In this document: piece after piece, positions 25,419 to 64,000 of the stretch
Position numbering within the stretch: the stretch's first letter is position 1
Layout: each line of letters begins with the position of its first letter
From: Dehalococcoidia bacterium
GTDB taxonomy: Bacteria > Chloroflexota > Dehalococcoidia > Lucifugimonadales > UBA2962
NCBI GenBank assembly: GCA_965207145.1
Contig: OZ242262.1
Span: 1,864,827-1,928,826, forward strand
Direction: 5' to 3'
DNA: 64,000 nt
Notes under the pieces: model-generated
What the model saw: only the letters and a program-made list of their open reading frames with translations
Databases searched by the model: none
What the model was told of the DNA's origin: nothing
Position numbers and translations under genes: made by a program

Positions 25419-28166
25419 TCAGCCGTCCGCAATCTCCACCCTGACGGCGCAGACCTTGAACTCCGGTATTTTGGAATCCGGGTCCAGAGCTGAGTTGGTG
25501 AGGAAGTTGGCGGCCGACTCCTTCAGCTTCGTAAAGGGCACGAATACCTGTCCCTCCTCCATCTTTTCGTCAAATATCACACGCGCCTCTAAAGATCCTC
25601 TACGCGATTTCAACCGTGCCCAGACACCCTCCTCCAGGCCGTAGCGTTCCCCGTCCCGTTCGTTCATCGAAACGGTCACCTCGGGCGCGCGGGCCATGAG
25701 GGCGGATGCCCTACGCGTGATGGTACCGCCGTGCCAGTGGTACAGGATGCGGCCGGTGTTAAGGATCAGGGGGAAGCGTTTCGTGGGCATTTCCTCCGCC
25801 GCTGGACCCTGGTCGAAGGCGACGAACCTCGCTGGCTCGCCGTGCGGAAACTCATCCGCGTAAAGGTAGCGGGTGCCGGGGTGTTCGGGGGTAGTGCAGG
25901 GCCATTGCACCCCTCCCTCGCGCTCCAGTCGGTCGTAGTCGATGCCGCTGAACATCGGGACCAACGCGGCCATCTCATCCCATATCTGCGAGGGGTGTGA
26001 AAAAGAAAACTGGCCATCGAGTTCAAGCCCCCGTCGCTTGGCTACGCGCTTTGCAAGATCGCATACGATCTCCCAATCCGGCCTGCTGTCACCAACCGGC
26101 TTTACCGCCTTGCGAACCCGCTGTACCCGGCGCTCGCTGTTGGTGAACGTTCCGTCCTTTTCGGCAAAGGAGGTGGCCGGTAGCACCACGTCGGCTATCT
26201 CAGCGGTCTCGTTCATGAAGATGTCCTGCACGACCAAGAACTCGAGGCTCTCAAAGGCCCTCTGGGCATGGGTCAGGTCGGGTTCCGACAACAGGGGATT
26301 CTCCCCGGTCACGTACATGGCCTTTATTCCGCCGGTAACCATCTCGCCGGTCATCTCGGTGATCACGAGACCGCCTTTCTCAGGCAAGGGGTGTCCGCCC
26401 CACGCCTGTTGGAAGCGGGCGAATTGGTCCGACTCTACTTTCTGGTAACCCGGGAATGAATCGGGAAGGCAGCCGGAGTCTCCGCAGCCCTGTACGTTGT
26501 TCTGGCCCCTAAGGGGCGAGACGCCTGAACCCGGTCTACCCAGCTGTCCCGTTACCAGGGCGAGGTTGAGCAGGCTGTGCACATTGGGGGTGCCGTTCGT
26601 GTGCTGAGTGATGCCCATACCCCAGATGAGGCAGGAACCAGAGAACGGCGGCGAAGCGTATGTGCGCGCCGCTTCGGCCACATCTTCGGCTGGCACCCCG
26701 GTGATTCTCTCGGCAAACGATGCGCTGTAGCGCCCGATAACGGCGCGCCACTCCTCGAAGCCCTCGGTCCTGGCACGGATGAATTCCTCATTGGCCAGGC
26801 CCTCCTCCAATATCACGTTGGCCATGGCGTTGAACAGCGCCACGTCGGTACCCGGTCTCGGCCTGAGCCACAGGTCGGCGTAGTCGCACATTCCAATGCG
26901 CCTGGGATTGATTACGATCAGCTTGGCGCCGCGTTCGACCACAGCCCGCCGCATGCGAGCTGCGGCAACCGGATGGTTGGAGTCGGCGTCCGAGCCGGCG
27001 ATCATCAGGCAGCCGGCCTCCTCGTAGTCGACGTATGAATTGGACGTGGCCCCGCTGCCCAGCGCGATCTGCATCGCCGCCACTGAGGGCGCATGACACA
27101 GGCGAGTGCAATGGTCAATGTTATTGGACTTCATCACGAGCCGGGCGAACTTCTGCTGGACGTAGCCGTCCTCGTTAGTGGCCTTGGCAGAGCAAAGGGT
27201 GCCGAACTCCTCACCGCTGTAGCGAGCCAGCCTGTCGGAGACGGTGTCCAGTGCCTCGTCCCAGCTCACCGGCCGAAGCACGCCGTCCTTTCGAACCAGC
27301 GGCTCGGTCAGGCGACTCTTGTCGTGTACGAACGTGTACCCGAACCGTCCCTTGACGCAGAGCATACCCAGGCTTGACCGGTTGTCCGGGTCATCCAACA
27401 TCTCAACTATGCTGCCTTCGCCATTAATCCTGGCTTTAATGCCGCAGCCGACCCCGCAGTAGGGGCAGGTGGTGTTGATGGTTCTGGCGACATTGGAGAC
27501 CGCCTGTTTGGTGCGGATGGCTCCGGTAGGGCAAACGGAAAGACACTGGCCGCAAGTTGTGCATACCGAGTCCGCAAGGTTACGGTCCATGAAAGTGCCG
27601 ATTCGGCTGGATGCGGCGCCGGTTCCAAGGAAGTCGATGGCGCCTATGAACTGATGGCTGTCCTGGCAGGCACGGGTGCAGCGTCCGCAGAGGATGCAGT
27701 CCTGCATAGCTATGTCGAATACCGGGTTGGATGTATCCGCCATATCCCTTGGACGGCCCGACCATCGCGAGGAAGCGATGCCATGGTGCTCGGCGGCGAC
27801 GGTCAACTCGCGGTGGTCGACCATATCCGGCGCGCCGTTCTCCGAAGGGGACTGCGGGACGCAGACCGTGTCCGACTCCGGAAACATGGCCATGGTCAGC
27901 TCTATCACGCCGGAGCGGATGCGACGCAGGCCCGGTGTATCCGTTCGAATCCTCATCCCGTTGGCTGCCGGAAGGGAGCAGGAGGCCGGATAGCCGCCCA
28001 CACCATCCACCTGCACCAGGCAGGTGCGGCAGGCCCCGATCGGCTTCATGTCAGGATCTTTACACAACTGGGACAGATAGGTGCCGGAGAGATTGACGGC
28101 ATCCAGTACCGAGGCCCCGTGGCCCACGACGACCTTCCGTCCGTCTATCGACACTTCCATGCTCAT
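25419..28166 (-). CDS. fdhA: formate dehydrogenase alpha subunit, NAD-linked FdsA/FdhA type, Cys active site
   Basis: N-terminal 2Fe-2S and 4Fe-4S Cys clusters plus a molybdopterin oxidoreductase body. NIDHCTRLCHAPSVAAM aligns to the FdhF CARVUHGPSVAG site with Cys in place of Sec. Confidence 0.9.
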   Translation of the reverse strand: MSMEVSIDGRKVVVGHGASVLDAVNLSGTYLSQLCKDPDMKPIGACRTCLVQVDGVGGYPASCSLPAANGMRIRTDTPGLRRIRSGVIELTMAMFPESDTVCVPQSPSENGAPDMVDHRELTVAAEHHGIASSRWSGRPRDMADTSNPVFDIAMQDCILCGRCTRACQDSHQFIGAIDFLGTGAASSRIGTFMDRNLADSVCTTCGQCLSVCPTGAIRTKQAVSNVARTINTTCPYCGVGCGIKARINGEGSIVEMLDDPDNRSSLGMLCVKGRFGYTFVHDKSRLTEPLVRKDGVLRPVSWDEALDTVSDRLARYSGEEFGTLCSAKATNEDGYVQQKFARLVMKSNNIDHCTRLCHAPSVAAMQIALGSGATSNSYVDYEEAGCLMIAGSDADSNHPVAAARMRRAVVERGAKLIVINPRRIGMCDYADLWLRPRPGTDVALFNAMANVILEEGLANEEFIRARTEGFEEWRAVIGRYSASFAERITGVPAEDVAEAARTYASPPFSGSCLIWGMGITQHTNGTPNVHSLLNLALVTGQLGRPGSGVSPLRGQNNVQGCGDSGCLPDSFPGYQKVESDQFARFQQAWGGHPLPEKGGLVITEMTGEMVTGGIKAMYVTGENPLLSEPDLTHAQRAFESLEFLVVQDIFMNETAEIADVVLPATSFAEKDGTFTNSERRVQRVRKAVKPVGDSRPDWEIVCDLAKRVAKRRGLELDGQFSFSHPSQIWDEMAALVPMFSGIDYDRLEREGGVQWPCTTPEHPGTRYLYADEFPHGEPARFVAFDQGPAAEEMPTKRFPLILNTGRILYHWHGGTITRRASALMARAPEVTVSMNERDGERYGLEEGVWARLKSRRGSLEARVIFDEKMEEGQVFVPFTKLKESAANFLTNSALDPDSKIPEFKVCAVRVEIADG

Positions 28167-28181
28167 CTCTGCGCGTCCGGG

Positions 28182-51659: not shown

Positions 51660-52672
51660 TGGCTATTCTCCTGGGCGGGCTTGCGCACAACAGCAAAGCT
51701 AGGTCTCTAGTTCTACTCTATTCCGAATCACCTGGAATAGTTAGGGCTTGCTTGGCATCTGAGATACTCGACTTGGACTCTGCCGCGCAGCTAGGGCTTG
51801 GCATTAATCCTCCGAGGTGGGCCCTAAATGCGTCTACCTCGGGGGCGGTACGTCAGTCGCTCCGCCCAAAAGACCTCTAGCGTGGGCCGAAGTGTACGGC
51901 AACTCTACGTCGTTGCCGCTTAGGGCCGATCCATCCTTCATGCCGGACTTGGCAAGATTCGTTGAGCCTACAACTTCGCCTCTAGCCGAGCCAGCCCCGT
52001 GTCGTCGCCAGATTCGGTGAAGGACGAAGCATTCACCGAAATCACTGCGGCGAGCCGATTTGCCACTCTGGCCTGAAGCCTCGCTGAGTCGGTATGTAAC
52101 TGGCACTCCGGCTACCGGATTAGGTAACCGAGTGGAACGTTCTTGAGTCCATGAATGGACAACTGGAAACGCTGGCTAGGGAGAGCAAACATTAGCCAAA
52201 AATGTTCGGATTTCACGAATATCGATACATAGACTTATCTGCACAGAGATAGATAGTTAATGCGACTGTGGATATATGCCATATATCTCCCGTCGATTGA
52301 AACGGATAGTGATCAGAAATCGAGAGCGGGAAGGGTGTATATAACTCTATCAGTGCTTAGCACTATCGGCCAAACGATACCGGGTCTGTTGTACAAGCGC
52401 GTGTGATGCAGATTGCAGGCGAGAACTGCGTCGTTGCGGCTGTCATTCCACTGGCTTAGTCGACATCGCGGATGATGCTGCCTCTCCGTTTTGGTATGGT
52501 GCTGCGGAATATGTGCGGCACCACCGCTTCTTTCGCCTTTGAGGGCAACATGGAGGCAGGGAACGGCAATGCTGCAGCTGATTAGTGCGCCGGGCACTTG
52601 CCCTCCGAACGGACGTGCTTCGTGCAGATGTAGAGCGTTACTCTGTGACTATTGAACGGAAGTGGAGACGGT

Positions 52673-54508
52673 ATGCGCTTTCTTCTTGACCCGTGGCGCC
52701 GCATAGGTGCCCGACTATACCTCGCCCTGGGATTTGCGGTGCTCCTTACCCTGGGTTCTAGCGCCGTGGCAGTGTATTACTTCGAGCGGAGCGGAGACCT
52801 TAATCACCGGGTCCAGACCGAGGCGGAACCAGCTCTGGATGCATCTTGGGCAGCTGCTCGGGAAGCAGAGCGACTCTTGTCGTTAGGCCTCAGGCTCATG
52901 GTCCAGAACGCGGCAGGGGTCTCTACAGACACAGCGACGGCCTCGCTGGAGCGGTTGGAAAGTTACCTGACCGCTGCCAGCGTTGTCCCTGCCTTGCTGC
53001 CGGCAGCGAACGAGGTGCATGAAGGAGCATATGCACTGGTCGGAGTCATCGATCAGTTGGCAGTCTACCAAGCTGCGGTTCAAGACAACGACGTAGCTGC
53101 GACTGAACTTGGAGGCGCCATAGAAGGGTTGTCGGTCGATGGTGAGTCCCGTGCGTCGCTGAGGCGAGCTCTATTGGCTTCTGACCAGGCTGAGCTTGAC
53201 CGCCTCTGGGACCAAATCGCAGTACTACCGTTGGGTGAACAGGTGTATGCGGTCCGTGGTCAGCAACTAGCGCTGCGGGCTCAAGCAAATGGATTCGCTG
53301 CCACTCTCGATGAGCGAAGTGTGGCTCTGGAGGACTCGGTCACTGGTCTATTGGCGACCGCGCGCGCAGAGTCGCAGGTAATACTTGAGTCGTCGGTCCG
53401 CAGTTTTGACGAGGGTCGCATCATCCTGGCGGTGATCAGTATTGCAAGCGTCCTCGCGGCTACCCTGAGCGCCTGGCTTTGGGTGGGGCAGGGGGTGGTG
53501 CGTCGTCTATCTAGGCTGTCTGAGCGCATGCGCGGCATGGCGTCCGGTGACCTCGAAACTCCGATACCCGAGGTAAGCCGGGACGAAATAGGCGAACTGG
53601 CCGGCGCTCTTGAAGTGTGGCGCCAGCAGGCGCTTGAAGTGCAGCGGCTGAATCTGGTTGAACGCCTCTACGGAGAGCTGCGTGAGGTGAACGAGGAGTT
53701 GCAGCGGATGCAGGCCAGGCTAGTGGCACAAGAGAAGCTGGCCGCCTTGGGGGAGCTGGTATCCGGTGTAGCGCACGAGATCAGTAATCCGCTGAACTTC
53801 GTCAAGAACTTTACCGAGGGATCCTTAGAGCTTCAGCGTGAACTGATGGGAATGCTGACAAGTTACCGCGGTCAAATGACGGAGGATGATGCCGGTCTCC
53901 TTGATGACATCAGCGAGGAGTTGGCAACCAGTCTGGAGCGCGTGCAGTCCAACGGCGGTCGCGCTCTAGCAATTGTCGAGCGAATGCGGGGTCTGGGAGT
54001 AGTCGGAGGGGATCCGGAGCCCACAGACTTGAACGGTGCGTTGCGATCCGCCGTGCGGCTGGCTTGCGAGGCCTTTCACGCGGAATGGAGGGATTTTAGC
54101 GTGGAGCCTGACTTTGACCTGGACCGCTCGGTGGGCGATGTGTCGCTTGTAGCCAATGACTTTAGCGAAGCCGTCGTAGGCCTTGTTTCGAACGCCTGCT
54201 ATGCACTGAGACAAAAGAGGGATGCGCAAGACGGCGAGTATGAACCGGGCCTGTCTGTGTCCAGCCGCCTTTCGGACGGTTTAGTGGAGGTGCGTGTCCG
54301 TGACAATGGGCCGGGAATCCCCGATGAAGTTGTGGGGCAGATATTTGACCCCTTCTTTTCGACCCGTGAAGGTGTAGTCGGAGCCGGACTGGGACTTCCC
54401 ATCGCCGCTGATGTAATGAGGCGCCTCGGAGGAGATCTCGTCGTTGACACGGTCCACGGCGAATACACGGAGTTCACCATGACGCTGCCGGCAGGCTCCA
54501 CGCCCTAG
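52673..54508 (+). CDS. sensor histidine kinase (TM sensor region, HAMP, HisKA, HATPase_c); no cognate response regulator nearby
   Basis: HAMP SGDLETPIPEVSRDEIGELAGAL, H-box SGVAHEISNPLN, G-boxes DNGPGIP and GAGLGLPIA. ATG 52673 follows GGAGACGG. The tracked ORF begins at TTG 52652. Confidence 0.85.
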   Translation: MRFLLDPWRRIGARLYLALGFAVLLTLGSSAVAVYYFERSGDLNHRVQTEAEPALDASWAAAREAERLLSLGLRLMVQNAAGVSTDTATASLERLESYLTAASVVPALLPAANEVHEGAYALVGVIDQLAVYQAAVQDNDVAATELGGAIEGLSVDGESRASLRRALLASDQAELDRLWDQIAVLPLGEQVYAVRGQQLALRAQANGFAATLDERSVALEDSVTGLLATARAESQVILESSVRSFDEGRIILAVISIASVLAATLSAWLWVGQGVVRRLSRLSERMRGMASGDLETPIPEVSRDEIGELAGALEVWRQQALEVQRLNLVERLYGELREVNEELQRMQARLVAQEKLAALGELVSGVAHEISNPLNFVKNFTEGSLELQRELMGMLTSYRGQMTEDDAGLLDDISEELATSLERVQSNGGRALAIVERMRGLGVVGGDPEPTDLNGALRSAVRLACEAFHAEWRDFSVEPDFDLDRSVGDVSLVANDFSEAVVGLVSNACYALRQKRDAQDGEYEPGLSVSSRLSDGLVEVRVRDNGPGIPDEVVGQIFDPFFSTREGVVGAGLGLPIAADVMRRLGGDLVVDTVHGEYTEFTMTLPAGSTP

Positions 54509-54649: not shown

Positions 54650-55462
54650 CTACAACTCGATAATGCCAAAGCCGACTGCGTAGTCGCATCCGGCTAATTC
54701 ACCGATGGCAGCGGCTCCCCAGTGAAGGAATTCATCGGGGTCAAAGGATTGGGGCAGGTTGTCGATGTAGACGCGGTGTTCTCTGAGCGATTGGACACCC
54801 TTATCGATGAATCCGGTCACGTCAACGTAGTGGGTGATACTCGGGGCTGACGCTATGAAGACACACTTGGTGCCGCGCCAGGGCTCATAGCCTTCGTCAA
54901 GGAGTTCGGGGAATATCCATCGGTTGTCGGCGTCCCTGGCGGCGTCGAGCACTGCAATTCCTACGGCACGGTGGTCGGCCATATTGAGTTTGTCGCCAGC
55001 CCAGGTGAGTTCATGGTTGCCGCTGATCAGAACATCGGGTCGGAATTTTCGAATGGCTCGGGAGATGTCGCGCCGAAGAGGTAGACCGTACTCTACGACT
55101 CCGTCCCTGTAATCGAGAAACTCCACGGAATCAACGCCAACAACACGTGCGCTGCTAATCTCCTCGTGCATCCGGAGCCTTGCGGTCTCTTCGGGATGCA
55201 TGGAATCTATTCCTGCCTCGCCCTTGGTTATCATCAGGTAGCCGATCTTCTTTCCCTGCGAGGTCCAGCGCGCGATGGCACTGGCGGCGCCGTATTCCAG
55301 ATCGTCAGGATGGGCAGCAATTGCAAGGGCCCGGGACCAGTCCTCTGGCAGGGGCGAGAGCTTGGCGGATTGATCAGGTACAGCTATGGCACAGGCTCCC
55401 GTGGCAATTGATAGTCGCAGAGCATGCCCCCAGCATGGCAGGGAACGCTGATTTGGATGCAA
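54650..55462 (-). CDS. PIG-L/LmbE-family N-acetylglucosaminyl deacetylase
   Basis: AIAAHPDDLEYGAASAIA (AHPDDxE) and a downstream HxxH-type region. Confidence 0.8.
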   Translation of the reverse strand: MHPNQRSLPCWGHALRLSIATGACAIAVPDQSAKLSPLPEDWSRALAIAAHPDDLEYGAASAIARWTSQGKKIGYLMITKGEAGIDSMHPEETARLRMHEEISSARVVGVDSVEFLDYRDGVVEYGLPLRRDISRAIRKFRPDVLISGNHELTWAGDKLNMADHRAVGIAVLDAARDADNRWIFPELLDEGYEPWRGTKCVFIASAPSITHYVDVTGFIDKGVQSLREHRVYIDNLPQSFDPDEFLHWGAAAIGELAGCDYAVGFGIIEL

Positions 55463-55789: not shown

Positions 55790-57034
55790 ATGGTCAAGGA
55801 GAGCATTGAAACAGGACCTGAGTCAAGGCCGGGATTCGAGCACCTGGAGGACTGGTTGCGAGGTCAGATGCAGGGTCTGATCCAGGACATGCTGGAGGAG
55901 GAGGTCACCGAGTTCCTGGGCAGGGCCAGGTCGGTGCGCCGGTCGGGATCCGATAGGGACTCTGGGTACCGAAACGGTCACGGAAGCCCCCGGAGGCTGA
56001 CGCTGAGCTCGGGGACGATCCAGGTGAGGCGGCCGAGGGTACGTGATACCGAGGAGCGGTTCGAGAGCAGGCTTCTTCCCCTGTTCGCCAACAGGAGCCG
56101 GCAGGTCGACGTCCTGCTTCCGGAACTGTACCTGCACGGTCTGTCGGAGGGGGACTTCGACCTGGCGCTGCGAGGTCTGCTGGGCGAGGCCGCTCCGATA
56201 TCGGCCAGCACGATCGCGCGTCTGAAGGACAGGTGGAACGCAGAGCTCGCCGAGTGGCGGGGAAGGTCCCTTTCCGAGCTAGAGGTAGTCTACATGTGGG
56301 TGGACGGGGTGTACGTGAAGGCGGGCCTGGAGCGTGAGAAGGCCGCGATCCTGGTGGTTGTGGCGGCGCTGAGCGACGGGAGCAAGGTGGTCCTGAGCGC
56401 GGTGCCCGGGTACCGGGAGTCCACACGGAGCTGGTCGGATGTGCTCAGGGACCTGAGGGACCGCGGTCTCAGCTGCCCGCGGCTGGTGGTCGGAGACGGT
56501 CATCTGGGGATCTGGGGGGCGCTTGGCAACGTGTACCCGGAGGCGGGAGAGCAGCGCTGCTGGAACCACAAGATCCTCAACGTGCTCGACAAGCTTCCCA
56601 AACGTCAGCATGACCAGGCAAAGCTGATGCTGCGCAGCATGCCGTACGCTCCCACCCGGGCCGAGGCAGAGCGGCTCAGGCGGGTCTTCACGCGGTGGTG
56701 CGGCGAGCACTCCTACGAAGCAGCCCGTGAGGCTATCGAGCGTGACTGGGACAGGATGGTGGCCTTCTACGACTACCCCAAACAGCACTGGCGTCACCTG
56801 AGAACGACCAACCCGGTCGAGTCGCCCTTCGCTGCGCTGCGCATCCGGACGGATGCGGCCAGGCGCTATAAGAAGGTGGACCGGGCGATCGCAGTCATAT
56901 GGAAGATGCTGATGGTGGCCGAGAACAGGTTCCGGCGCCTGCAGGCGCCGGAGCTGATGGCTGACGTCTACCTCGGTGCCAGGTACAAGGACGGGGTCGC
57001 CATCGAGCAACAGGAAGAGAGGATCGCCGCCTGA
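55790..57034 (+). CDS. IS256-family (Mutator-type) transposase
   Basis: YMWVDGVYVKAG ... VVGDGHLGIWGAL ... QRCWNHKILNVLDKLPK signature (DDE with the CWxHK motif). Confidence 0.9.
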   Translation: MVKESIETGPESRPGFEHLEDWLRGQMQGLIQDMLEEEVTEFLGRARSVRRSGSDRDSGYRNGHGSPRRLTLSSGTIQVRRPRVRDTEERFESRLLPLFANRSRQVDVLLPELYLHGLSEGDFDLALRGLLGEAAPISASTIARLKDRWNAELAEWRGRSLSELEVVYMWVDGVYVKAGLEREKAAILVVVAALSDGSKVVLSAVPGYRESTRSWSDVLRDLRDRGLSCPRLVVGDGHLGIWGALGNVYPEAGEQRCWNHKILNVLDKLPKRQHDQAKLMLRSMPYAPTRAEAERLRRVFTRWCGEHSYEAAREAIERDWDRMVAFYDYPKQHWRHLRTTNPVESPFAALRIRTDAARRYKKVDRAIAVIWKMLMVAENRFRRLQAPELMADVYLGARYKDGVAIEQQEERIAA

Positions 57035-57803
57035 TCGCTTTTACACACCCTTTGACGCAACCTCCCGGGCGGTGGAGTAACTACAGTGCATTGCGAACTG
57101 TTCGGCGTGCGGCGGCAGGATAGAATTCCGGTTAAATTACCCCTGCCGTCTGAGCCTACTCCCTTCCAACTTCCTTGGCAGCAGGTAAGATCAACCGGTT
57201 GTGTCGCAGTTTGAGCCACGCGTAGGGCGGCACCGCAGGCGAACGGTTCCCTGAGAGAGTCTCAGTCTGAGAGTGGAGTCAGTTTAGCCTCGGCTACCGC
57301 AGTTGACGTACAGGACGGCCGATCCGAAGGCGGACGCGGCAAGGATCGGTGTCATCCACTTAGCAAACTCGATGATGGTCCGAGAGTTATGTCCTCTAGG
57401 AGGTCCTCCTGCCACTGTTCACCTTGCAGCTTGGACATTCAGGGGGCGTTGTTCTTCGATGTGCCTGATGTGTTTTTTTCAAGGCATTCCGCAGGCGGAC
57501 TGCACCGTCATACGAAAAGAGGTGACAGTTCTCTTCAATTTGCAACTCCAGGCTCGCAAGGCCATCAGGCCAGTCCTCGACCTACACCACTATGTGAGCC
57601 AAGTTAGGCTTCCTCTTCCTTCCAAACCTCGCAAGGTTTCCTATGTCTAGGCCATTTCACTTCGGGCCTTCCTACGATCCGGTTCCGCCGCTTTCCGTAA
57701 CCGGATTGCAGCACTTACCCGAGTCCGGCGTCGGATACCCGAAGGCGAAGGGCGAGGGCGACGGGGTCAAGGTACCGTAGAGCCGACGAGAGGAGTCGTG
57801 AAT

Positions 57804-58745
57804 ATGCCTATCTGGTCCTTCAGCGATCTTGGAGAGCTGTTTTCAAACCAGTCGATTGGCCTCTGGGAGCGTTTGAGCTACGTCAGGGAGTCCATCAAGA
57901 GCCGCGGCGTCCTTGGGCCGGTGAGGTTCGGGGAGGAGACGATCACTGACCTGCTGATGATGGACCTCTACGTCCAGGGGTCGACGCTGGCCCTCTTCCA
58001 GCAGACCTCCAAGCCCGAGGAGGCCATGTGGGGGACCGACTTCGAGCTGTGGCTGGGGTCGGACCCGCTTGGGTGGTTTCGATTCGCCATCCAGGCCAAG
58101 AAGCTCGACCTGAGGAGCGGCAGGTACGCTTCCCTCACGCAGAGCAACGTCAACGGAAAGCAGATTGACCTCCTCGAACGATACGCCGGGCGCAAGCGTG
58201 CCGCGCCGCTGTACTGCCTCTACAACCACACCGACGATGCGAACGAGCTGAACCACTGGCATTGCTGCACCGGCCCCGCCAACCTGAAGGACCTCGGGTG
58301 CTCCGTCACCCCGTCGTCGAACATCCGCAAGGCCATCGGCCAGTGGAAGGGCAAGAACTTCAAGAGCATTCACCAGAGGAAGAACACGCTGCCCTGGAAG
58401 TGCCTGGTCTCCTGCCCATCGGTGTGGTACCTGCTCCAGGTCAAGTCGGGGAAGGGCACCGGGAGCCCTATAATCCGGGAGACGCCCCTGTTTGATGCCG
58501 ACTCCTGTTACCACGATACATTGCCTCTGGCGCTTCGGATGCAGGATCAGCCAGCCGTCGTACGGCGAAGCGAGCGTGGGGGTTCGCTGATATCGATACC
58601 GCTGGATGCGGAGAGGGACATCGATCAGGCTGCCGACGCGTTCGGGCGGGAGGTCCGTCGCGACTTCAGGGAATGGTATGACCCGGAAACCGGATCGCCC
58701 AAAGCGGCTGCCGTCATAGAAGTGCAAGGTCCTGCTCTGAGATGA
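57804..58745 (+). CDS. hypothetical protein with PD-(D/E)xK-like nuclease-fold motifs
   Basis: AGGAG lies 8 nt before ATG 57804. Pattern: EETITDLLMMDL helix, GTDFELWLG strand, RFAIQAKKL strand (E...D-x-E...QxK). The opposite-strand 294-aa ORF is R/P/G/L-rich shadow. Confidence 0.55.
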   Translation: MPIWSFSDLGELFSNQSIGLWERLSYVRESIKSRGVLGPVRFGEETITDLLMMDLYVQGSTLALFQQTSKPEEAMWGTDFELWLGSDPLGWFRFAIQAKKLDLRSGRYASLTQSNVNGKQIDLLERYAGRKRAAPLYCLYNHTDDANELNHWHCCTGPANLKDLGCSVTPSSNIRKAIGQWKGKNFKSIHQRKNTLPWKCLVSCPSVWYLLQVKSGKGTGSPIIRETPLFDADSCYHDTLPLALRMQDQPAVVRRSERGGSLISIPLDAERDIDQAADAFGREVRRDFREWYDPETGSPKAAAVIEVQGPALR

Positions 58746-58817: not shown

Positions 58818-59663
58818 ATGTCGATCCCTGAATCGACGCTCTCCAGATGGAGCCACCATCGGGCTGCGACGGCCTTCACGCAGGCGCACCTTCCCATCCG
58901 GGCCGCCTTGGACAACTACAGTTGGCCCTCGGACATCACGTACGAGGTTTTCCTTCAGGGCTCCTACAAGAACGACACGAACCTCGGCGGGGACAGTGAT
59001 GTCGACGTGGTGGTGCGGTTGAACCATCGGCTCAGGCCGCGAGTGGCCGAGCTCACGGGCCGGCAGTTGCGGGGTGACGCTTCCCGCCAAGGGGCATACC
59101 AGCGGTGGAAGTCCTTCAGGGACCATGCGCTCAAGGCGATGAGAGCTAGGTTCGGGAATGCCGCCAAGAGCGGCCGGAAGACCGTGAAGGTGCCGAAAGG
59201 CAAGATCCCGGCGGACGCCGACCTCGTCGTCACGCTGCGCTACAGGGAAGGCATAGCGTTCTACCTACCGGATGAAGGACGCTGGGTCTTCAGCTTTCCG
59301 CAGCAGCACCACGCTCAGGGTCAGAAGAAGGAAGAGGCAACCAACCGGCGGTTCAAGCGGACCATCCGTATGTTCAAAGCGGCACGGAACCGGCTGGTCG
59401 AGACGGAGGCGCTCACCAAAAGTGATGTCCCCTCCTACTTCATCGAATGCCTGCTCTACAACGTCCCCGACGACCTGTTCAAACCGAAGCTGGTGCCGAG
59501 GTATACGGTCATCGTCGATTGGCTGAAGACAGCGAGGCTCGGTGATCTCAAATGCCAGAACGGCCAAGTGGAACTGTTCGGCTCGGGCAAGGAGCAGTGG
59601 TCCGTGAAGAAGGCGCGGGCGTTCGTCAGGGCGTTGGAGAAGCTGTGGGAGGCGGGGGCATGA
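58818..59663 (+). CDS. nucleotidyltransferase, CD-NTase/SMODS-like (Pol-beta fold with helical C-domain)
   Basis: LQGSYKNDTNLGGDSDVDVVVRL (GS...DxD) at 58959-59006. A later ADADLVVTL carries the third acidic residue. C-terminal region FKRTIRMFKAARN...PSYFIECLLYNVP is typical of cGAS/DncV-like enzymes. Confidence 0.65.
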   Translation: MSIPESTLSRWSHHRAATAFTQAHLPIRAALDNYSWPSDITYEVFLQGSYKNDTNLGGDSDVDVVVRLNHRLRPRVAELTGRQLRGDASRQGAYQRWKSFRDHALKAMRARFGNAAKSGRKTVKVPKGKIPADADLVVTLRYREGIAFYLPDEGRWVFSFPQQHHAQGQKKEEATNRRFKRTIRMFKAARNRLVETEALTKSDVPSYFIECLLYNVPDDLFKPKLVPRYTVIVDWLKTARLGDLKCQNGQVELFGSGKEQWSVKKARAFVRALEKLWEAGA

Positions 59664-59875
59664 AGGATGGCCATCCGCCCACAATCAGGTATCCCGCGGG
59701 ACAAAGTTAAGGATAGTCGTGCCCGTCCAGATTCTCACGGGCCAAGAGCTGTCCCTGAGAGCATGGGAATCTCGGTTGTCAGCAGGTGACCGATCCCTAG
59801 GCACGAAGGTCAGACCACCTCCCTACGGAAGAGCCCTCGATAGTCGCTGGGAGATTTGGCGACGGCCGGGGTCAG

Positions 59876-59905
59876 TTGATCGTAAGAAAAGGGAGATTCT
59901 ATACT
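59876..59905 (+). promoter_or_regulatory. sigma70-like promoter for the HTH/DruA-like/large-ORF operon
   Basis: TTGATC (59876-59881), 18-nt spacer, TATACT (59900-59905). It lies about 45 nt upstream of ATG 59950. Confidence 0.4.
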
Positions 59906-59949
59906 TTCGCCGACTTTCATGGCCATTGATATGTAAGGGCGGTACTGAC

Positions 59950-60171
59950 ATGAGTCTCACGGAGAGCTGGGTGAACATTGCGGAAGTGGCAGCGCACCTA
60001 CAAGTTACGAAGGATTCGATATATCGCTGGGTCGATTCGAAGGGTTTTCCGGCTCACCGCGCCGGGCGACTATTGAGATTCAAGCTATCAGAAGTAGACA
60101 CATGGGTGCGGTCAGGTAGTGATGAGCACACTCCTTTAGAGGGTCATAACAGAAGCGCAGATGACAACTAA
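59950..60171 (+). CDS. small excisionase/MerR-type HTH DNA-binding protein (HTH_17-like)
   Basis: VNIAEVAAHLQVTKDSIYRWVDSKGFPAHRAGRLLRFKLSEVDTWV. The start is taken at the internal ATG 59950. It overlaps the next gene by 11 nt. Confidence 0.75.
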   Translation: MSLTESWVNIAEVAAHLQVTKDSIYRWVDSKGFPAHRAGRLLRFKLSEVDTWVRSGSDEHTPLEGHNRSADDN

Positions 60172-61405
60172 ATCAACTGGCCCGGATTCGGCCGTATTTC
60201 AGGAGGGGCATCTCTCGGCGGGAGCCAATGGTTCTTCGCTGTCTAGTGACCGCGCTGACGGAGCGTCCTTGAAGAGCGCAATACACGAGCACCTGTTGAA
60301 TCTAGGCTTCTCTCGGAATGGCAGTGGCTATTTCGTCGATGGAGTTTTGACGAAGCAGAAGATCCGGAATCTTCATGCCGCCCAACGGGTCGACATCCTG
60401 GAGCGGCATAGGAGCTTTGTTGAAACGCATGGCACCGAATTGGCGAGGCATTTTGCGAGCGGTAGTCAGGTTGACACCGGGTCGATTAGTCCAAGGCTAG
60501 TCCCGGTTCTTCCGGGCTCCCTTGAGTCTCGATTGTTCAGATTTGCTTCGCTGCTGTGGTCTGTGCCAGTGTCGCAGGGCTTTGGGCGTCGACTGCGTTT
60601 CCTCGTCAAGGACAGACAGAACGATTGTTTGATCGGCCTCTTCGCTCTGGGAGACCCCGTCTTCAATCTTTCCGCTCGGGACAATTGGATCGGCTGGACA
60701 CACGAGGACCGCCGGGATCGACTCGTCCATGTAATGGATGCCTATGTTGTTGGCGCCGTTCCTCCATACTCTCAATTGATTGGTGGGAAACTCGTGGCCG
60801 CACTCATGGGTAGCAAGGAGGTGCGACGAGCCTACGAACGGAAGTACCTGGCCCGGCAATCAGTGATTCGCCAGAGGACACATCGGGCGCGTCTGGTGCT
60901 TTTGACGACAACATCGGCTCTGGGTCGTTCATCGATCTACAACCGTCTGACCATACCGGACGGTCCTCGCTTCCTCAGGATTGGTACGACCAAGGGTTTC
61001 GGTCACTTTCATCTTTACGGCGAAGTGTTCGATTCGCTCAGGGATCATCTGGAGGAGACTGGGCACCCCTATGCTTCCGGCCACAGGTTCGGCATGGGGC
61101 CAAACTGGAAGCTGCGCGTCGCAAGAGCCGCACTTGAGGACATTGGCATTGACGGAAACTCAGTCTTGAAGCACGGCATCGAGCGTGAAGTGTACGCCAT
61201 CCCACTGGCTGAGAATTGGAAGAAGGTCATATCGGGTGAGCATCAGAGAGTCCGCTCCCTTGCCAAGCCGGCCGCCGAAATCTCGAAGTACTGCTTGGAC
61301 CGTTGGATCGTGCCTCGATCGGAGCGGGACACGAGTTTTCGTAGCTTTGACAAGGACATCATCATACCTACTTTGTTGAACGGAGGCCCTGGGGCAACGT
61401 GGTAA
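60161..61405 (+). CDS. DruA-like protein (DUF4338-like core)
   Basis: GRRLRFLVKDRQNDCLIGLFALGDPVFNLSARDNWIGWTHEDRRDRL (60584-60697) resembles, from memory, the DUF4338 signature (RLRYLV...RDxWIGW) of Druantia DruA. Size is 414 aa. Confidence 0.55.
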   Translation: MTTKSTGPDSAVFQEGHLSAGANGSSLSSDRADGASLKSAIHEHLLNLGFSRNGSGYFVDGVLTKQKIRNLHAAQRVDILERHRSFVETHGTELARHFASGSQVDTGSISPRLVPVLPGSLESRLFRFASLLWSVPVSQGFGRRLRFLVKDRQNDCLIGLFALGDPVFNLSARDNWIGWTHEDRRDRLVHVMDAYVVGAVPPYSQLIGGKLVAALMGSKEVRRAYERKYLARQSVIRQRTHRARLVLLTTTSALGRSSIYNRLTIPDGPRFLRIGTTKGFGHFHLYGEVFDSLRDHLEETGHPYASGHRFGMGPNWKLRVARAALEDIGIDGNSVLKHGIEREVYAIPLAENWKKVISGEHQRVRSLAKPAAEISKYCLDRWIVPRSERDTSFRSFDKDIIIPTLLNGGPGATW

Positions 61406-64000
61406 TGATCTCTGAACTAGAGGCATGGCAGACGCGCCTGTCACTTCACTTTGCGACTCTCAGGGACAGTCAGCGCGCAAGTGGAACAGGGGAGTCCCTC
61501 TTTGCTCTTGAACACGGTCTGACAGAGTCGGAGGTATCAGCTCTTGAGGGGGCGGTGCGAGCTCACATCGCGTCCCGTGCGCCATCACGCGACCATTGGC
61601 TGGTATGGGTCGTGTACTCTGCCGAACTGGGCTATCGGTACGCCGGTGACGAGTACTGGCAGACGTTCGAACAAGAGACCCCGGGATGGATCGTCAACGG
61701 AGACCGCTACAGGATTCGCGATTTCTACAGACGGTTCGAAAGGGAATTCGGCGGCGCAGTACCTTCGGGTCCTTGGGCTGCGCAATTCTCCATCATATGT
61801 TGGCCCATCACGCATGCCATCCTTCCAAAGGACTTGCAGGTGCAACTTGCCCGGACGCTCTATGAGTGCAGGTTCCTGTTCTCAGAGGATGTTCTCGGGT
61901 CGCCAGAGCGGTTGGGTGGCCTCCTCGCCGCACGGAGTTGGAACGCGTCGTCCCGCTTCAGAAACCTAGCGGAAGACACACGCCTCTTGGGGCAGATCGC
62001 TGCGGCTCTTCTCACCCAGGGACGGCCTGCGTCCGGTGAGCTCATATACCCGGCGACATTACAGAGGATCAGCGAGGACCTTGACCGAGAGCGACAAGCA
62101 CGAGAGTGGATTAGGAAAGCACGTAGTTCCGCAGATGAACGCGTGCAGGTCCGCGGTCTCGGCCCCGTCAGCAGCCGGGCAATTCCGTCCAGCATTAGTC
62201 AAATAGGCGAGGCAAGGGCGGCTGTCGCGCAACTAGGAATCGAGCCACGTCTCGTTCTTCGACCAAGAGACGCATCCGAGAGATTGTGGGACATACTGCT
62301 AGAGGTCCCTAGCCTGGCTCATTTGTTGCTGCGATTCCCTCAGACTCGGGAGATACTCACCGGCTCGCGCTGCGTTGTTGCGGGATCGCAAGGACGCCGC
62401 TTAGCGCGAGGTCGCCTCGTTTATGGCGCTCAGCGCATAAGGCTGGTCAGGTGGCCGAAATCCGACGAAGTGCTGCTGCAATTCGAGAAGAAGGACCCGC
62501 AACTTGACTTCCTCCTTCGTACGGAGTGTCTGCTCCGGCCTGGTTACACTTGGCTCTTGAGGATCGCTTCCGATGGTCTGGCCTATGAGCTCAGGGGCTT
62601 GAGAGTTAGGCCAGATGAGCGCTATGTCATCCTTAGCATGGATGGACCGGTCGACGGAGGCGGGCACGTTACCCCGATTGAGGTAGGGTGCGAGGGAGTC
62701 AACGCCGCGATCCTTGACCTGCCCAAGTCTCTCGACGAAGACTGGCAACAGTCGATTCAGAATCTAGGCCTTGGGCAGGCAAGGGGCATCGAGGTTTGGC
62801 CCGCCGGTTTGTCCGCAGTGGCTTGGGACGGCGAAGGGAATGGCGAGTGGCTGGCCTCCGAGCGACCATGCCTTGCCATTCTTGCGGACTATCCCCTGGA
62901 ATCCCTCAGGGTCTCTATTGATTCAAGCCCCCTTCACGTCTTCGAGTTGGCAACTCTGGAAGCAGGGGAACTCTTGTTTCTCGAACTTCCTCTGCTTCCT
63001 ATAGGGATGCATAAGCTGAGATTCTCAGCAAGTAGCAATCTGGCAGGTGAGATTGAAGCGCTCGCCGATCAAGAAGCCACGATACGCATTCTTGAAGACA
63101 GGCCGCAACCTTCAACGATTGACTTTCGGGGACCGCTGTCAGTGCAGGTCGACCCCCCACACCCCACCATGGAGCAACTCTGGGATGGTGAGGTTGAGGT
63201 CCTGCTTCAAGGTCCTCAGCACCGTGAGGTTTCTTGTCGCGTCTCCCTACTTGCGAGAAATGAAGGGGGTACGATTCTTGCGAAAGACCTGCCGCCGGTC
63301 AGATTGCCTTTATCTCCCAATGATTGGAGGGATCACTTCGAACAACGTTTTCGAAAAAGTGAAGACGTACAAGAGGCATACGACCGGGCCAACGCCTGCG
63401 TACTGGAGTTCGGTGTTGGTGAACTCGGAAGTTTCGTGCTCCGATGCGAGCGCACCTTCACTCCACTCAGGTGGACGTTACGACGGGAGGGTAACGCATA
63501 TGTGACGCGGCTCTATGATGACAGCGGTCACACGGGGCGACCCACAATCAGTCATGTTGCTTTCGAGGCTCCTTCTAGCGAACAAGAGTTGCCGTTCGAT
63601 GAAGAAATCCATGTTGCAGATGACGGTGGGATGTATATCGCACGAACACAGGCTCATACGGTGGCAATCATTGCTCCGCCCGTGCTCCACCACGGCTTCG
63701 GACTCGCCGCGTTAGGCCTCAAACCAGAAATAGAGCGCCTGAGGCGTTCCACTGACTCCGTCATAAGGGTGACGGAGATTGCGGCTCTTTGGAGCCGGGC
63801 GAGGCTGCCCGGCGGTCTCATGGCCGTAGTCCGACGGCAGCAGGTAATGATGGCATTGACCCGCGAACTCTCTCGCCTTGTGGGTGGAGACAATTGGGCG
63901 AGAGCAGAAGAGGAGGCTGACATTAGTGGCAGAGGCACCTGGACCTTAGAAGCCTTGTCCCAAGCGATATCCAAGAACCCTACAGAGGCCGGAGTTGGCC
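61405..64000 (+). CDS. large protein of unknown function, 5' part only (at least 865 codons, open at window end)
   Basis: The ATG overlaps the DruA-like stop (TAATG). By manual translation, frame 1 has no stop to position 64000 (MISELEAWQTRLSLHFATLRD...). It is absent from the ORF track, presumably because it has no stop. No Walker A or DEAD/DEAH motif was seen. Confidence 0.75.
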   Translation, partial: MISELEAWQTRLSLHFATLRDSQRASGTGESLFALEHGLTESEVSALEGAVRAHIASRAPSRDHWLVWVVYSAELGYRYAGDEYWQTFEQETPGWIVNGDRYRIRDFYRRFEREFGGAVPSGPWAAQFSIICWPITHAILPKDLQVQLARTLYECRFLFSEDVLGSPERLGGLLAARSWNASSRFRNLAEDTRLLGQIAAALLTQGRPASGELIYPATLQRISEDLDRERQAREWIRKARSSADERVQVRGLGPVSSRAIPSSISQIGEARAAVAQLGIEPRLVLRPRDASERLWDILLEVPSLAHLLLRFPQTREILTGSRCVVAGSQGRRLARGRLVYGAQRIRLVRWPKSDEVLLQFEKKDPQLDFLLRTECLLRPGYTWLLRIASDGLAYELRGLRVRPDERYVILSMDGPVDGGGHVTPIEVGCEGVNAAILDLPKSLDEDWQQSIQNLGLGQARGIEVWPAGLSAVAWDGEGNGEWLASERPCLAILADYPLESLRVSIDSSPLHVFELATLEAGELLFLELPLLPIGMHKLRFSASSNLAGEIEALADQEATIRILEDRPQPSTIDFRGPLSVQVDPPHPTMEQLWDGEVEVLLQGPQHREVSCRVSLLARNEGGTILAKDLPPVRLPLSPNDWRDHFEQRFRKSEDVQEAYDRANACVLEFGVGELGSFVLRCERTFTPLRWTLRREGNAYVTRLYDDSGHTGRPTISHVAFEAPSSEQELPFDEEIHVADDGGMYIARTQAHTVAIIAPPVLHHGFGLAALGLKPEIERLRRSTDSVIRVTEIAALWSRARLPGGLMAVVRRQQVMMALTRELSRLVGGDNWARAEEEADISGRGTWTLEALSQAISKNPTEAGVG

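Follow-up and report, generated by a model that had tools for sequence, protein, structure and literature searches.

The 3′ end of the window, the 64,000-nucleotide stretch of Dehalococcoidia contig OZ242262.1 analysed here (positions 1,864,827 to 1,928,826 of the forward strand), cuts through a gene that starts at position 61405 and encodes a protein of 986 amino acids, for which we use the working name X. This protein is almost certainly a component of a Druantia operon. Taking the evidence as a whole, we lean slightly towards the reading that X is a DruH-like, non-catalytic sensor or scaffold subunit of a four-gene anti-phage operon with the order (HTH)-DruA-X-DruD-DruE; the anti-phage function of this four-gene variant is one that we infer. 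The X family resembles DruH, which accompanies the DruE helicase in Druantia type III, rather than the DruB or DruC proteins of canonical Druantia type I.

Machine translation of frame 1 on the plus strand gave 865 codons without a stop from ATG 61405 to base 64000, the last of the window, as the first-pass annotation had read from the letters alone. The frame is stop-free from position 61351 on, with GTG 61399 and ATG 61405 as the only in-frame start codons ahead of the conserved N-terminus, and homologues of X in the databases begin at the equivalent of ATG 61405. At the stop frequency of 0.030 per codon that follows from the base composition of the window, the probability of 865 open codons is about 3e-12. 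The guanine plus cytosine content at codon positions 1, 2 and 3 of the gene (0.66, 0.48 and 0.60) is coding-like, and together with the conserved homologues described below it agrees with the earlier view that this is a genuine, protein-like open reading frame (ORF). The frame was also said to continue past the window, and this is indeed the case: the best database match, P0001 (986 amino acids), agrees with the query at every one of its 865 residues (100% identity), so that 121 codons of X lie past the window end and the part in the window corresponds to the N-terminal 88% of the protein. The ORF is missing from the ORF lists because ORFs that leave the end of the source sequence are not listed there. 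The claim that it is the largest coding capacity in the window was slightly off, since the longest open frame has 920 codons (25422-28181, minus strand).

The gene directly upstream of X is druA, and the last base of its TAA stop codon is at the same time the first base of the X start codon (TAATG), which suggests translational coupling. In front of druA lies a small HTH_17 gene, likely to encode an operon regulator or an excisionase-like protein. Its homologue in a related locus (L002, see below) has 73 amino acids, so the true start in the window is probably near 59950; the 11-base overlap with druA is the same in both, and an HTH_17 gene is present upstream of druA in 10 of the 80 loci surveyed below. 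The window stops inside X, and the genes past its end were deduced from homologous loci. In two Dehalococcoidia metagenome-assembled genomes (loci L001 and L002, with X proteins 81% and 69% identical to the query) the gene order is DruA, X (986-988 amino acids), a 358-amino acid protein and a DEAD/MZB helicase of 1845 amino acids, with a 4-base overlap between X and the next gene and no separate gene in between. The 358-amino acid protein was identified as DruD1 (PADLOC PDLC00010, 1e-111 to 1e-115) and the helicase as DruE1 (PDLC00013, E=0, >1900 bits). The same four genes are found on plasmid pNWAT01 of Nitrosococcus watsonii (L003 8762-19511), where X is 32% identical and again overlaps druD by 4 bases; across the relatives including this plasmid the PADLOC matches range from 1e-111 to 1e-147 for DruD1 and from 1922 to 1948 bits for DruE1. 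All complete homologous loci that were inspected (L001, L002, L003 and most of L009-L088) contain DruD and DruE1, and by analogy the genome described here presumably encodes its own DruD and DruE past the window end.

A DruA alignment was used to scan genomes, one for each GTDB species. This yielded 237 DruA loci, of which the best 80 (L009-L088) were surveyed; these were picked by similarity to the query DruA, which biases the proportions towards the X type. X adjoins DruA in 51 of the 80, and DruD and DruE come next nearly always. The 51 loci span at least 10 phyla, with hosts among the Chloroflexota, Acidobacteriota, Planctomycetota, Gemmatimonadota, Desulfobacterota, Actinomycetota, Spirochaetota, Bacteroidota, Alpha- and Gammaproteobacteria and others. 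Canonical DruB and DruC occur in four loci, a DruE-like gene lies upstream of DruA in 11, and short contigs or additional variants make up the other 14. The synteny of DruA, X, DruD and DruE is kept down to 30% identity of X, across phyla and also on plasmids. In this sample, with its bias towards the X type, the DruA-linked operon found most often is the one that has X as its second subunit. Cultured carriers include Nitrosococcus watsonii (pNWAT01), Consotaella salsifontis, a Mucilaginibacter sp. and Sinorhizobium medicae plasmids. A literature search found no paper describing the four-gene variant.

Two further DruA contexts were seen in the survey. In one (L046, L048, L049, L052, L056, L060, L080, L081, L084 and L088, and also L006 from a Meiothermus plasmid), a DruE-like helicase of about 1810 amino acids that is about 31% identical to DruE1 is encoded immediately 5′ of DruA on the same strand, and no X, DruB, DruC or DruD was detected downstream, save for a DruB-like ORF in L084. 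In the other (L044, L050, L072 and L073), DruA is followed by proteins of about 388 and 690 amino acids, neither of which matches the X, DruB, DruC or DruH profile.

X belongs to a large protein family that current annotation does not name. Searching 5.8 billion protein clusters gave 1054 clusters at E ≤ 1e-3, and the 120 homologues listed are 961-1016 amino acids long, save a few truncated entries; all 120 lack a precomputed Pfam domain and carry no informative name, and RefSeq calls the protein 'hypothetical protein' (e.g. on N. watsonii pNWAT01). Neither the X fragment nor the full-length protein matched a Pfam, PADLOC or NCBIfam model, even at thresholds of E ≤ 1 to 10. A search of PDB sequences with the family profile returned as its sole match a chance coiled coil (E=0.5), and tblastn of X against phage genomes gave no match. 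The N-terminal domain is the most conserved part of the protein and the C-terminal domain the least, as judged from 86 diverse family members. When 1.84 billion representatives were searched exhaustively by HMMER with the profile of the N-domain, 923 clusters were found at E ≤ 1e-3, 523 of them at E ≤ 1e-30, i.e. about 900 clusters at 50% identity that carry this domain. The best 150 are all of X-like length, fragments aside, and the search was saturated by members of the X family, so that distant relatives such as DruH could not appear in it. X is acidic overall (calculated pI 5.6), with a basic C-terminal domain (pI 8.8).

An AlphaFold2 model of X was built from a 114-sequence alignment, its secondary structure was assigned by DSSP, and folds were searched with Foldseek. 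The mean predicted local distance difference test score (pLDDT) of 80.5 and the predicted template modelling score (pTM) of 0.43 indicate that the individual domains are confident, but not their mutual arrangement, ring closure or exact number. The model starts with an all-helical N-domain, which is linked by a disordered segment (residues 247-261) to a beta-rich part with about five or six Ig/Fn3-like sandwiches (residues ~280-760) that includes a helical insert at residues 638-661. The C-terminal domain is all-helical (residues ~780-970). Foldseek matches were solely tandem Ig/Fn3/macroglobulin arrays, as in C3, gp130/IL-6 receptor, fibronectin and phage tail proteins, and a BFVD search found generic Fn3/Ig phage proteins only. 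The N-domain modelled alone had a lower pLDDT of 69 and no neighbour in the PDB (best E=0.49). The profile and structure searches that the first-pass annotation had called for thus returned no catalytic fold, in line with its remark that no catalytic motif could be recognised.

Arrays of Ig/Fn3 domains are characteristic of surface proteins, and it is proteins of that sort that X matches by fold. One might therefore suppose that X has no relation to Druantia and is, for instance, a surface adhesin with Ig repeats whose gene lies beside druA by chance, or even that we are dealing with a chance frame or a shadow frame. Both proposals are effectively refuted by synteny and conservation, and we consider them extremely improbable. 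The translated N-terminus (MISELEAWQTRLSLHF...) has no hydrophobic signal sequence, the gene overlaps druA by one base, and its position among DruA, DruD and DruE persists in proteins of 30% identity; a chance frame is further contradicted by the low probability of so long an open stretch and by the more than 1000 homologous clusters.

The protein to which X shows the closest likeness in design is DruH, the DruE partner of about 1100 amino acids in Druantia type III, to which three 2026 preprints are devoted (among them 10.64898/2026.05.12.722862 and 10.64898/2026.05.13.724758). DruH is described as composed of a globular N-domain, six Ig-like subdomains and a C-terminal domain that contacts the N-domain; it is largely negatively charged, binds single-stranded DNA (ssDNA) at the interface of Ig5 and the C-terminal domain in competition with ATP, and loses its defence activity upon deletion of the N-domain (10.64898/2026.05.12.722862). 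Its Fn3-like domains resemble the IL-6 receptor, and it has no catalytic domain (10.64898/2026.05.13.724758). We used as query the DruH encoded in a Zorya II/Druantia III/ARMADA II island of E. coli (L089 4387-7725). A search for its family gave 44 matches, the full-length ones all with PF27205 and PF27201, and a profile of 41 sequences was compared with X.

BLASTP between X and DruH was not significant, with one weak segment that aligns both N-termini in register, and reciprocal hmmsearch gave E>0.4. The STY4851/ECs_5259 domains PF27205 and PF27201 are absent from the precomputed Pfam column of the 120 X homologues listed; the local Pfam scan set lacked both models. In profile-profile comparison, full-length X against DruH gave E=0.002-0.006, and the X N-domain against the DruH profile gave E values of 3e-4 to 7e-4 with probabilities of 26-41%. 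The alignment covers 62-143 columns, depending on the X alignment used, and begins within the first few residues of both proteins. Its score of 38.9 can be compared with a mean of 18.1 (sd 2.7, maximum 29.5) for 60 block-shuffled DruH profiles and with 22.6 for the reversed DruH profile; DruB and DruC profiles, used as controls against the X N-domain, gave E values of 0.25-0.28 and scores of about 18. The middle and C-terminal regions of X gave nothing with DruH in profile-profile comparison, and the baseplate-J similarity reported for DruH was not reproduced for X in the BFVD search. From the profile alignment and the predicted model, it is probable, though unproven, that the N-terminal domains of X and DruH are remotely homologous and that the two proteins share their overall design.

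That X also works like DruH, by analogy, has about even chances in our judgement. X would then act in the system as a sensor or scaffold without catalysis of its own. Its Ig array and C-terminal domain would detect a sign of infection, which may be phage ssDNA that has become exposed or a structural protein of the phage to which the Ig-like array binds, and X would couple this cue to the YprA-family helicase DruE. DruA, which has been described as GNAT-like (PMC10853773), and DruD would supply the functions that are specific to type I.

The N-domain of X is also part of proteins outside the four-gene operons. It heads or lies inside large unannotated proteins encoded on plasmids of Leisingera and Azospirillum (hmmsearch domain E values of 5e-32 and 2e-30, respectively). 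These proteins have the N-domain and short stretches further on in common with X, whereas the remainder of the sequence and the operon partners are different. Their genes adjoin SNF2/DpdE-like, DrmA/DrmB and NERD-helicase genes, and in Leisingera also genes for DUF4338, DruD-like and DruE-like proteins. In this Leisingera locus (L007), the genes for the N-domain protein and the SNF2/DpdE-like protein are convergent with three others, which encode a DruD-like protein (weak match), a NERD-helicase and a DEAD-box helicase of large size, and the DUF4338 gene comes just after these; the locus looks like a hybrid Druantia/DISARM-like cluster that is unnamed by current models.

The conservation and the modular occurrence of the N-domain bear on a different proposal, which is that this domain is a new enzyme, such as a nuclease of a novel kind or an enzyme that modifies DNA or nucleotides, and that X acts as effector or modifier instead of being a passive sensor. 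Residues conserved in at least 97% of the 86 family members include E36, H37, W68, Y71, E74, E83, E89, W133-P134, Q145, R184 and R221, and many polar ones are among them (E36-H37, E74, E83, E89, Q145, R184 and R221), which speaks for this proposal, as does the fact that no other part of the protein is as conserved. Further points in its favour are that the domain turns up again as a module of large proteins encoded next to DISARM-like helicase systems, and that defence is lost when the N-domain of DruH is deleted (10.64898/2026.05.12.722862). The activity might also be tied to the N6-methyladenine (m6A) signature that type I Druantia of E. coli is reported to add, though no methylase domain is known there (10.1101/2024.04.14.589459). 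Against this, no enzyme family was matched by sequence or fold, the N-domain is all-helical and without a nucleotide-binding motif, and a role in packing or at an interface would explain the conserved aromatic and Gly/Pro residues just as well; for DruH itself, no catalytic activity was found (10.64898/2026.05.12.722862, 10.64898/2026.05.13.724758). We regard an enzymatic N-domain, the main rival reading, as unlikely and prefer the reading of X as a DruH-like sensor or scaffold.

Two individual sequences deserve mention. P0315 (1347 amino acids; P0005 cluster), from a 10,020-bp ENA metagenome contig, has X at its residues 3-942 and DruD at its residues 990-1346, with about 45 residues in a shifted frame between them. 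X and DruD may be naturally fused here, or else an error of assembly or a frameshift has joined the two genes where they overlap by 4 bases. The four-gene-type DruD of L002 (12958-14037) shows a weak match to the PADLOC type II methyltransferase model (E=0.002, residues 61-188), which may bear on the m6A signature of type I Druantia.

The proposal can be widened, with some hesitation and at slightly less than even chances, to the view that X and DruH are true homologues, that their common N-domain defines an unrecognised sensor/adaptor superfamily of YprA-helicase immunity, and that the four-gene system forms an evolutionary bridge between types I and III. Such a superfamily would cover four-gene Druantia, Druantia III and the DISARM-like clusters of Leisingera and Azospirillum, where the presence of the X N-domain hints at a common sensing module of YprA-helicase defences. 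DruE would then not be the sole component common to the Druantia types, and DruA-X-DruD-DruE would be the commonest DruA-linked architecture outside the Proteobacteria. If the assignment of X holds, a DruH-like protein would link type I-like and type III Druantia, and results obtained with DruH (ssDNA and ATP binding, sensing of phage proteins) could be transferred as testable hypotheses to type I-like systems. Annotation pipelines would need a model for X, closing the gap that at present appears as a 3-kb hole in these systems.

The genes that precede the Druantia operon in the window are given in Table 1. A gene for a CD-NTase-type cyclase, which also matches the NCBIfam model 'DS2_2 anti-phage nucleotidyltransferase' with 212 bits (under the cutoff of 350), lies downstream of a DUF6615 gene. 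Among the 80 DruA loci, a CD-NTase gene is found next to druA in five and DUF6615 in two, and these are the nearest relatives only, so we treat the pair as a neighbour apart from the Druantia system, probably a separate CBASS-like one in the same defence island. A transposase gene sits between these defence genes and housekeeping-type genes for a histidine kinase and a PIG-L deacetylase, while in L001 the defence island begins right after a two-component system, without a transposase. The window contains no tRNA gene and no Rfam family, and promoter and terminator scans of it gave results at chance level.

Table 1. Position of X, its predicted domains and neighbouring genes in the window, and of X-N-domain proteins in two plasmid loci.
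Feature	Position	Strand	Basis
Gene X, codons 1-865 of 986	61405..64000	+	Open frame; identity to P0001; conserved position between DruA and DruD; cut by window end
X N-domain, all-helical, residues 1-250	61405..62154	+	AlphaFold2 model; conservation
X central beta-rich region, residues 266-775	62200..63729	+	DSSP of AlphaFold2 model; Foldseek
X C-terminal helical domain, residues 776-986	63730..64000 (start only, residues 776-865)	+	AlphaFold2 model; P0001
druA, 414 amino acids, DUF4338	60161..61405	+	PF14236 E=8e-86; PADLOC DruA1 PDLC00002 E=1e-139
Small HTH_17 gene, 11-base overlap with druA start	59719..60171	+	PF12728 E=5.5e-13, residues 84-133
CD-NTase-type cyclase	58818-59663	+	PADLOC PDLC00788 3e-78
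DUF6615 protein	57798-58745	+	
IS256/Mutator transposase	55790-57034	+	PF00872 6e-57
PIG-L deacetylase	54650-55462	-	
Histidine kinase	52652-54508		
X-N-domain protein, 1012 amino acids, Leisingera sp. S132 plasmid	L007 11188-14226		hmmsearch
X-N-domain protein, Azospirillum ramasamyi plasmid	L008 11206-14985		hmmsearch

As a reference for canonical five-gene Druantia type I we used the system on P. putida plasmid pKF715A (L004), in which PADLOC recognises DruB (PDLC00005, 6e-230; 558 amino acids), DruC (PDLC00006, 6e-272; 625 amino acids) and DruD (PDLC00009). Similar to this system, the four-gene operon has DruA at its head, with about 47% identity between the DruA proteins of the two types, and it agrees with it in having DruD and DruE1 homologues, in gene order and in tight coupling. 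The difference is that a single gene, X, replaces druB and druC, and no homologue of either is present. X shares its place between DruA and DruD with these two genes, and its 986 amino acids are not far from the 558 + 625 of DruB and DruC together, so that X might be taken for a very divergent DruB-DruC fusion that does what both proteins do in canonical type I. X showed no BLASTP similarity to DruB or DruC and no PADLOC DruB or DruC match even at E ≤ 10, and comparison of the X profile with DruB (5-sequence) and DruC (4-sequence) profiles gave an hhalign probability of <1%. Comparison of DruH with DruB and DruC was also negative. Moreover, the N-terminus of DruB is CoiA_N-like and DruC contains a long coiled coil with SMC/JetC-like matches, and both elements are absent from the X model. 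The remaining subunits differ as well: DruD belongs to the PDLC00010/12 subfamily in the four-gene type versus PDLC00009 in canonical type I, and DruE is about 34% identical between the operon types as compared to 48-55% between two X-type clades. A divergent fusion is therefore quite improbable; since X is unrelated to DruB and DruC and the DruD and DruE proteins form separate subfamilies, the four-gene operon is a distinct subtype and not a mis-called five-gene system. It is also unrelated to the PADLOC 'type IV', which consists of DruE, DruF and DruL.

The comparison with Druantia type III shows both likeness and difference. DruH and X are both large (about 1000-1100 amino acids), acidic, devoid of known domains and encoded together with a DruE helicase of the YprA family. 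As far as can be judged from the AlphaFold2 model (pTM 0.43), both have a helical domain at either end and a chain of Ig/Fn3-like domains between the two, and a likeness of the Fn3/Ig part to gp130/IL-6 receptor is found in both. The basic C-domain of X may be set beside the ssDNA binding of DruH at the interface of Ig5 and the C-terminal domain. On the other hand, X is about 130 amino acids shorter and stays below the thresholds of the DruH family models, and it is flanked by DruA and DruD in the order DruA-X-DruD-DruE, whereas DruH is encoded directly upstream of DruE in the two-gene druH-druE operon. Finally, the DruE partner of X is of the type I kind, for which an inactivated Vsr-like C-terminus rather than PLD domains has been reported (10.1101/2025.09.15.676423).

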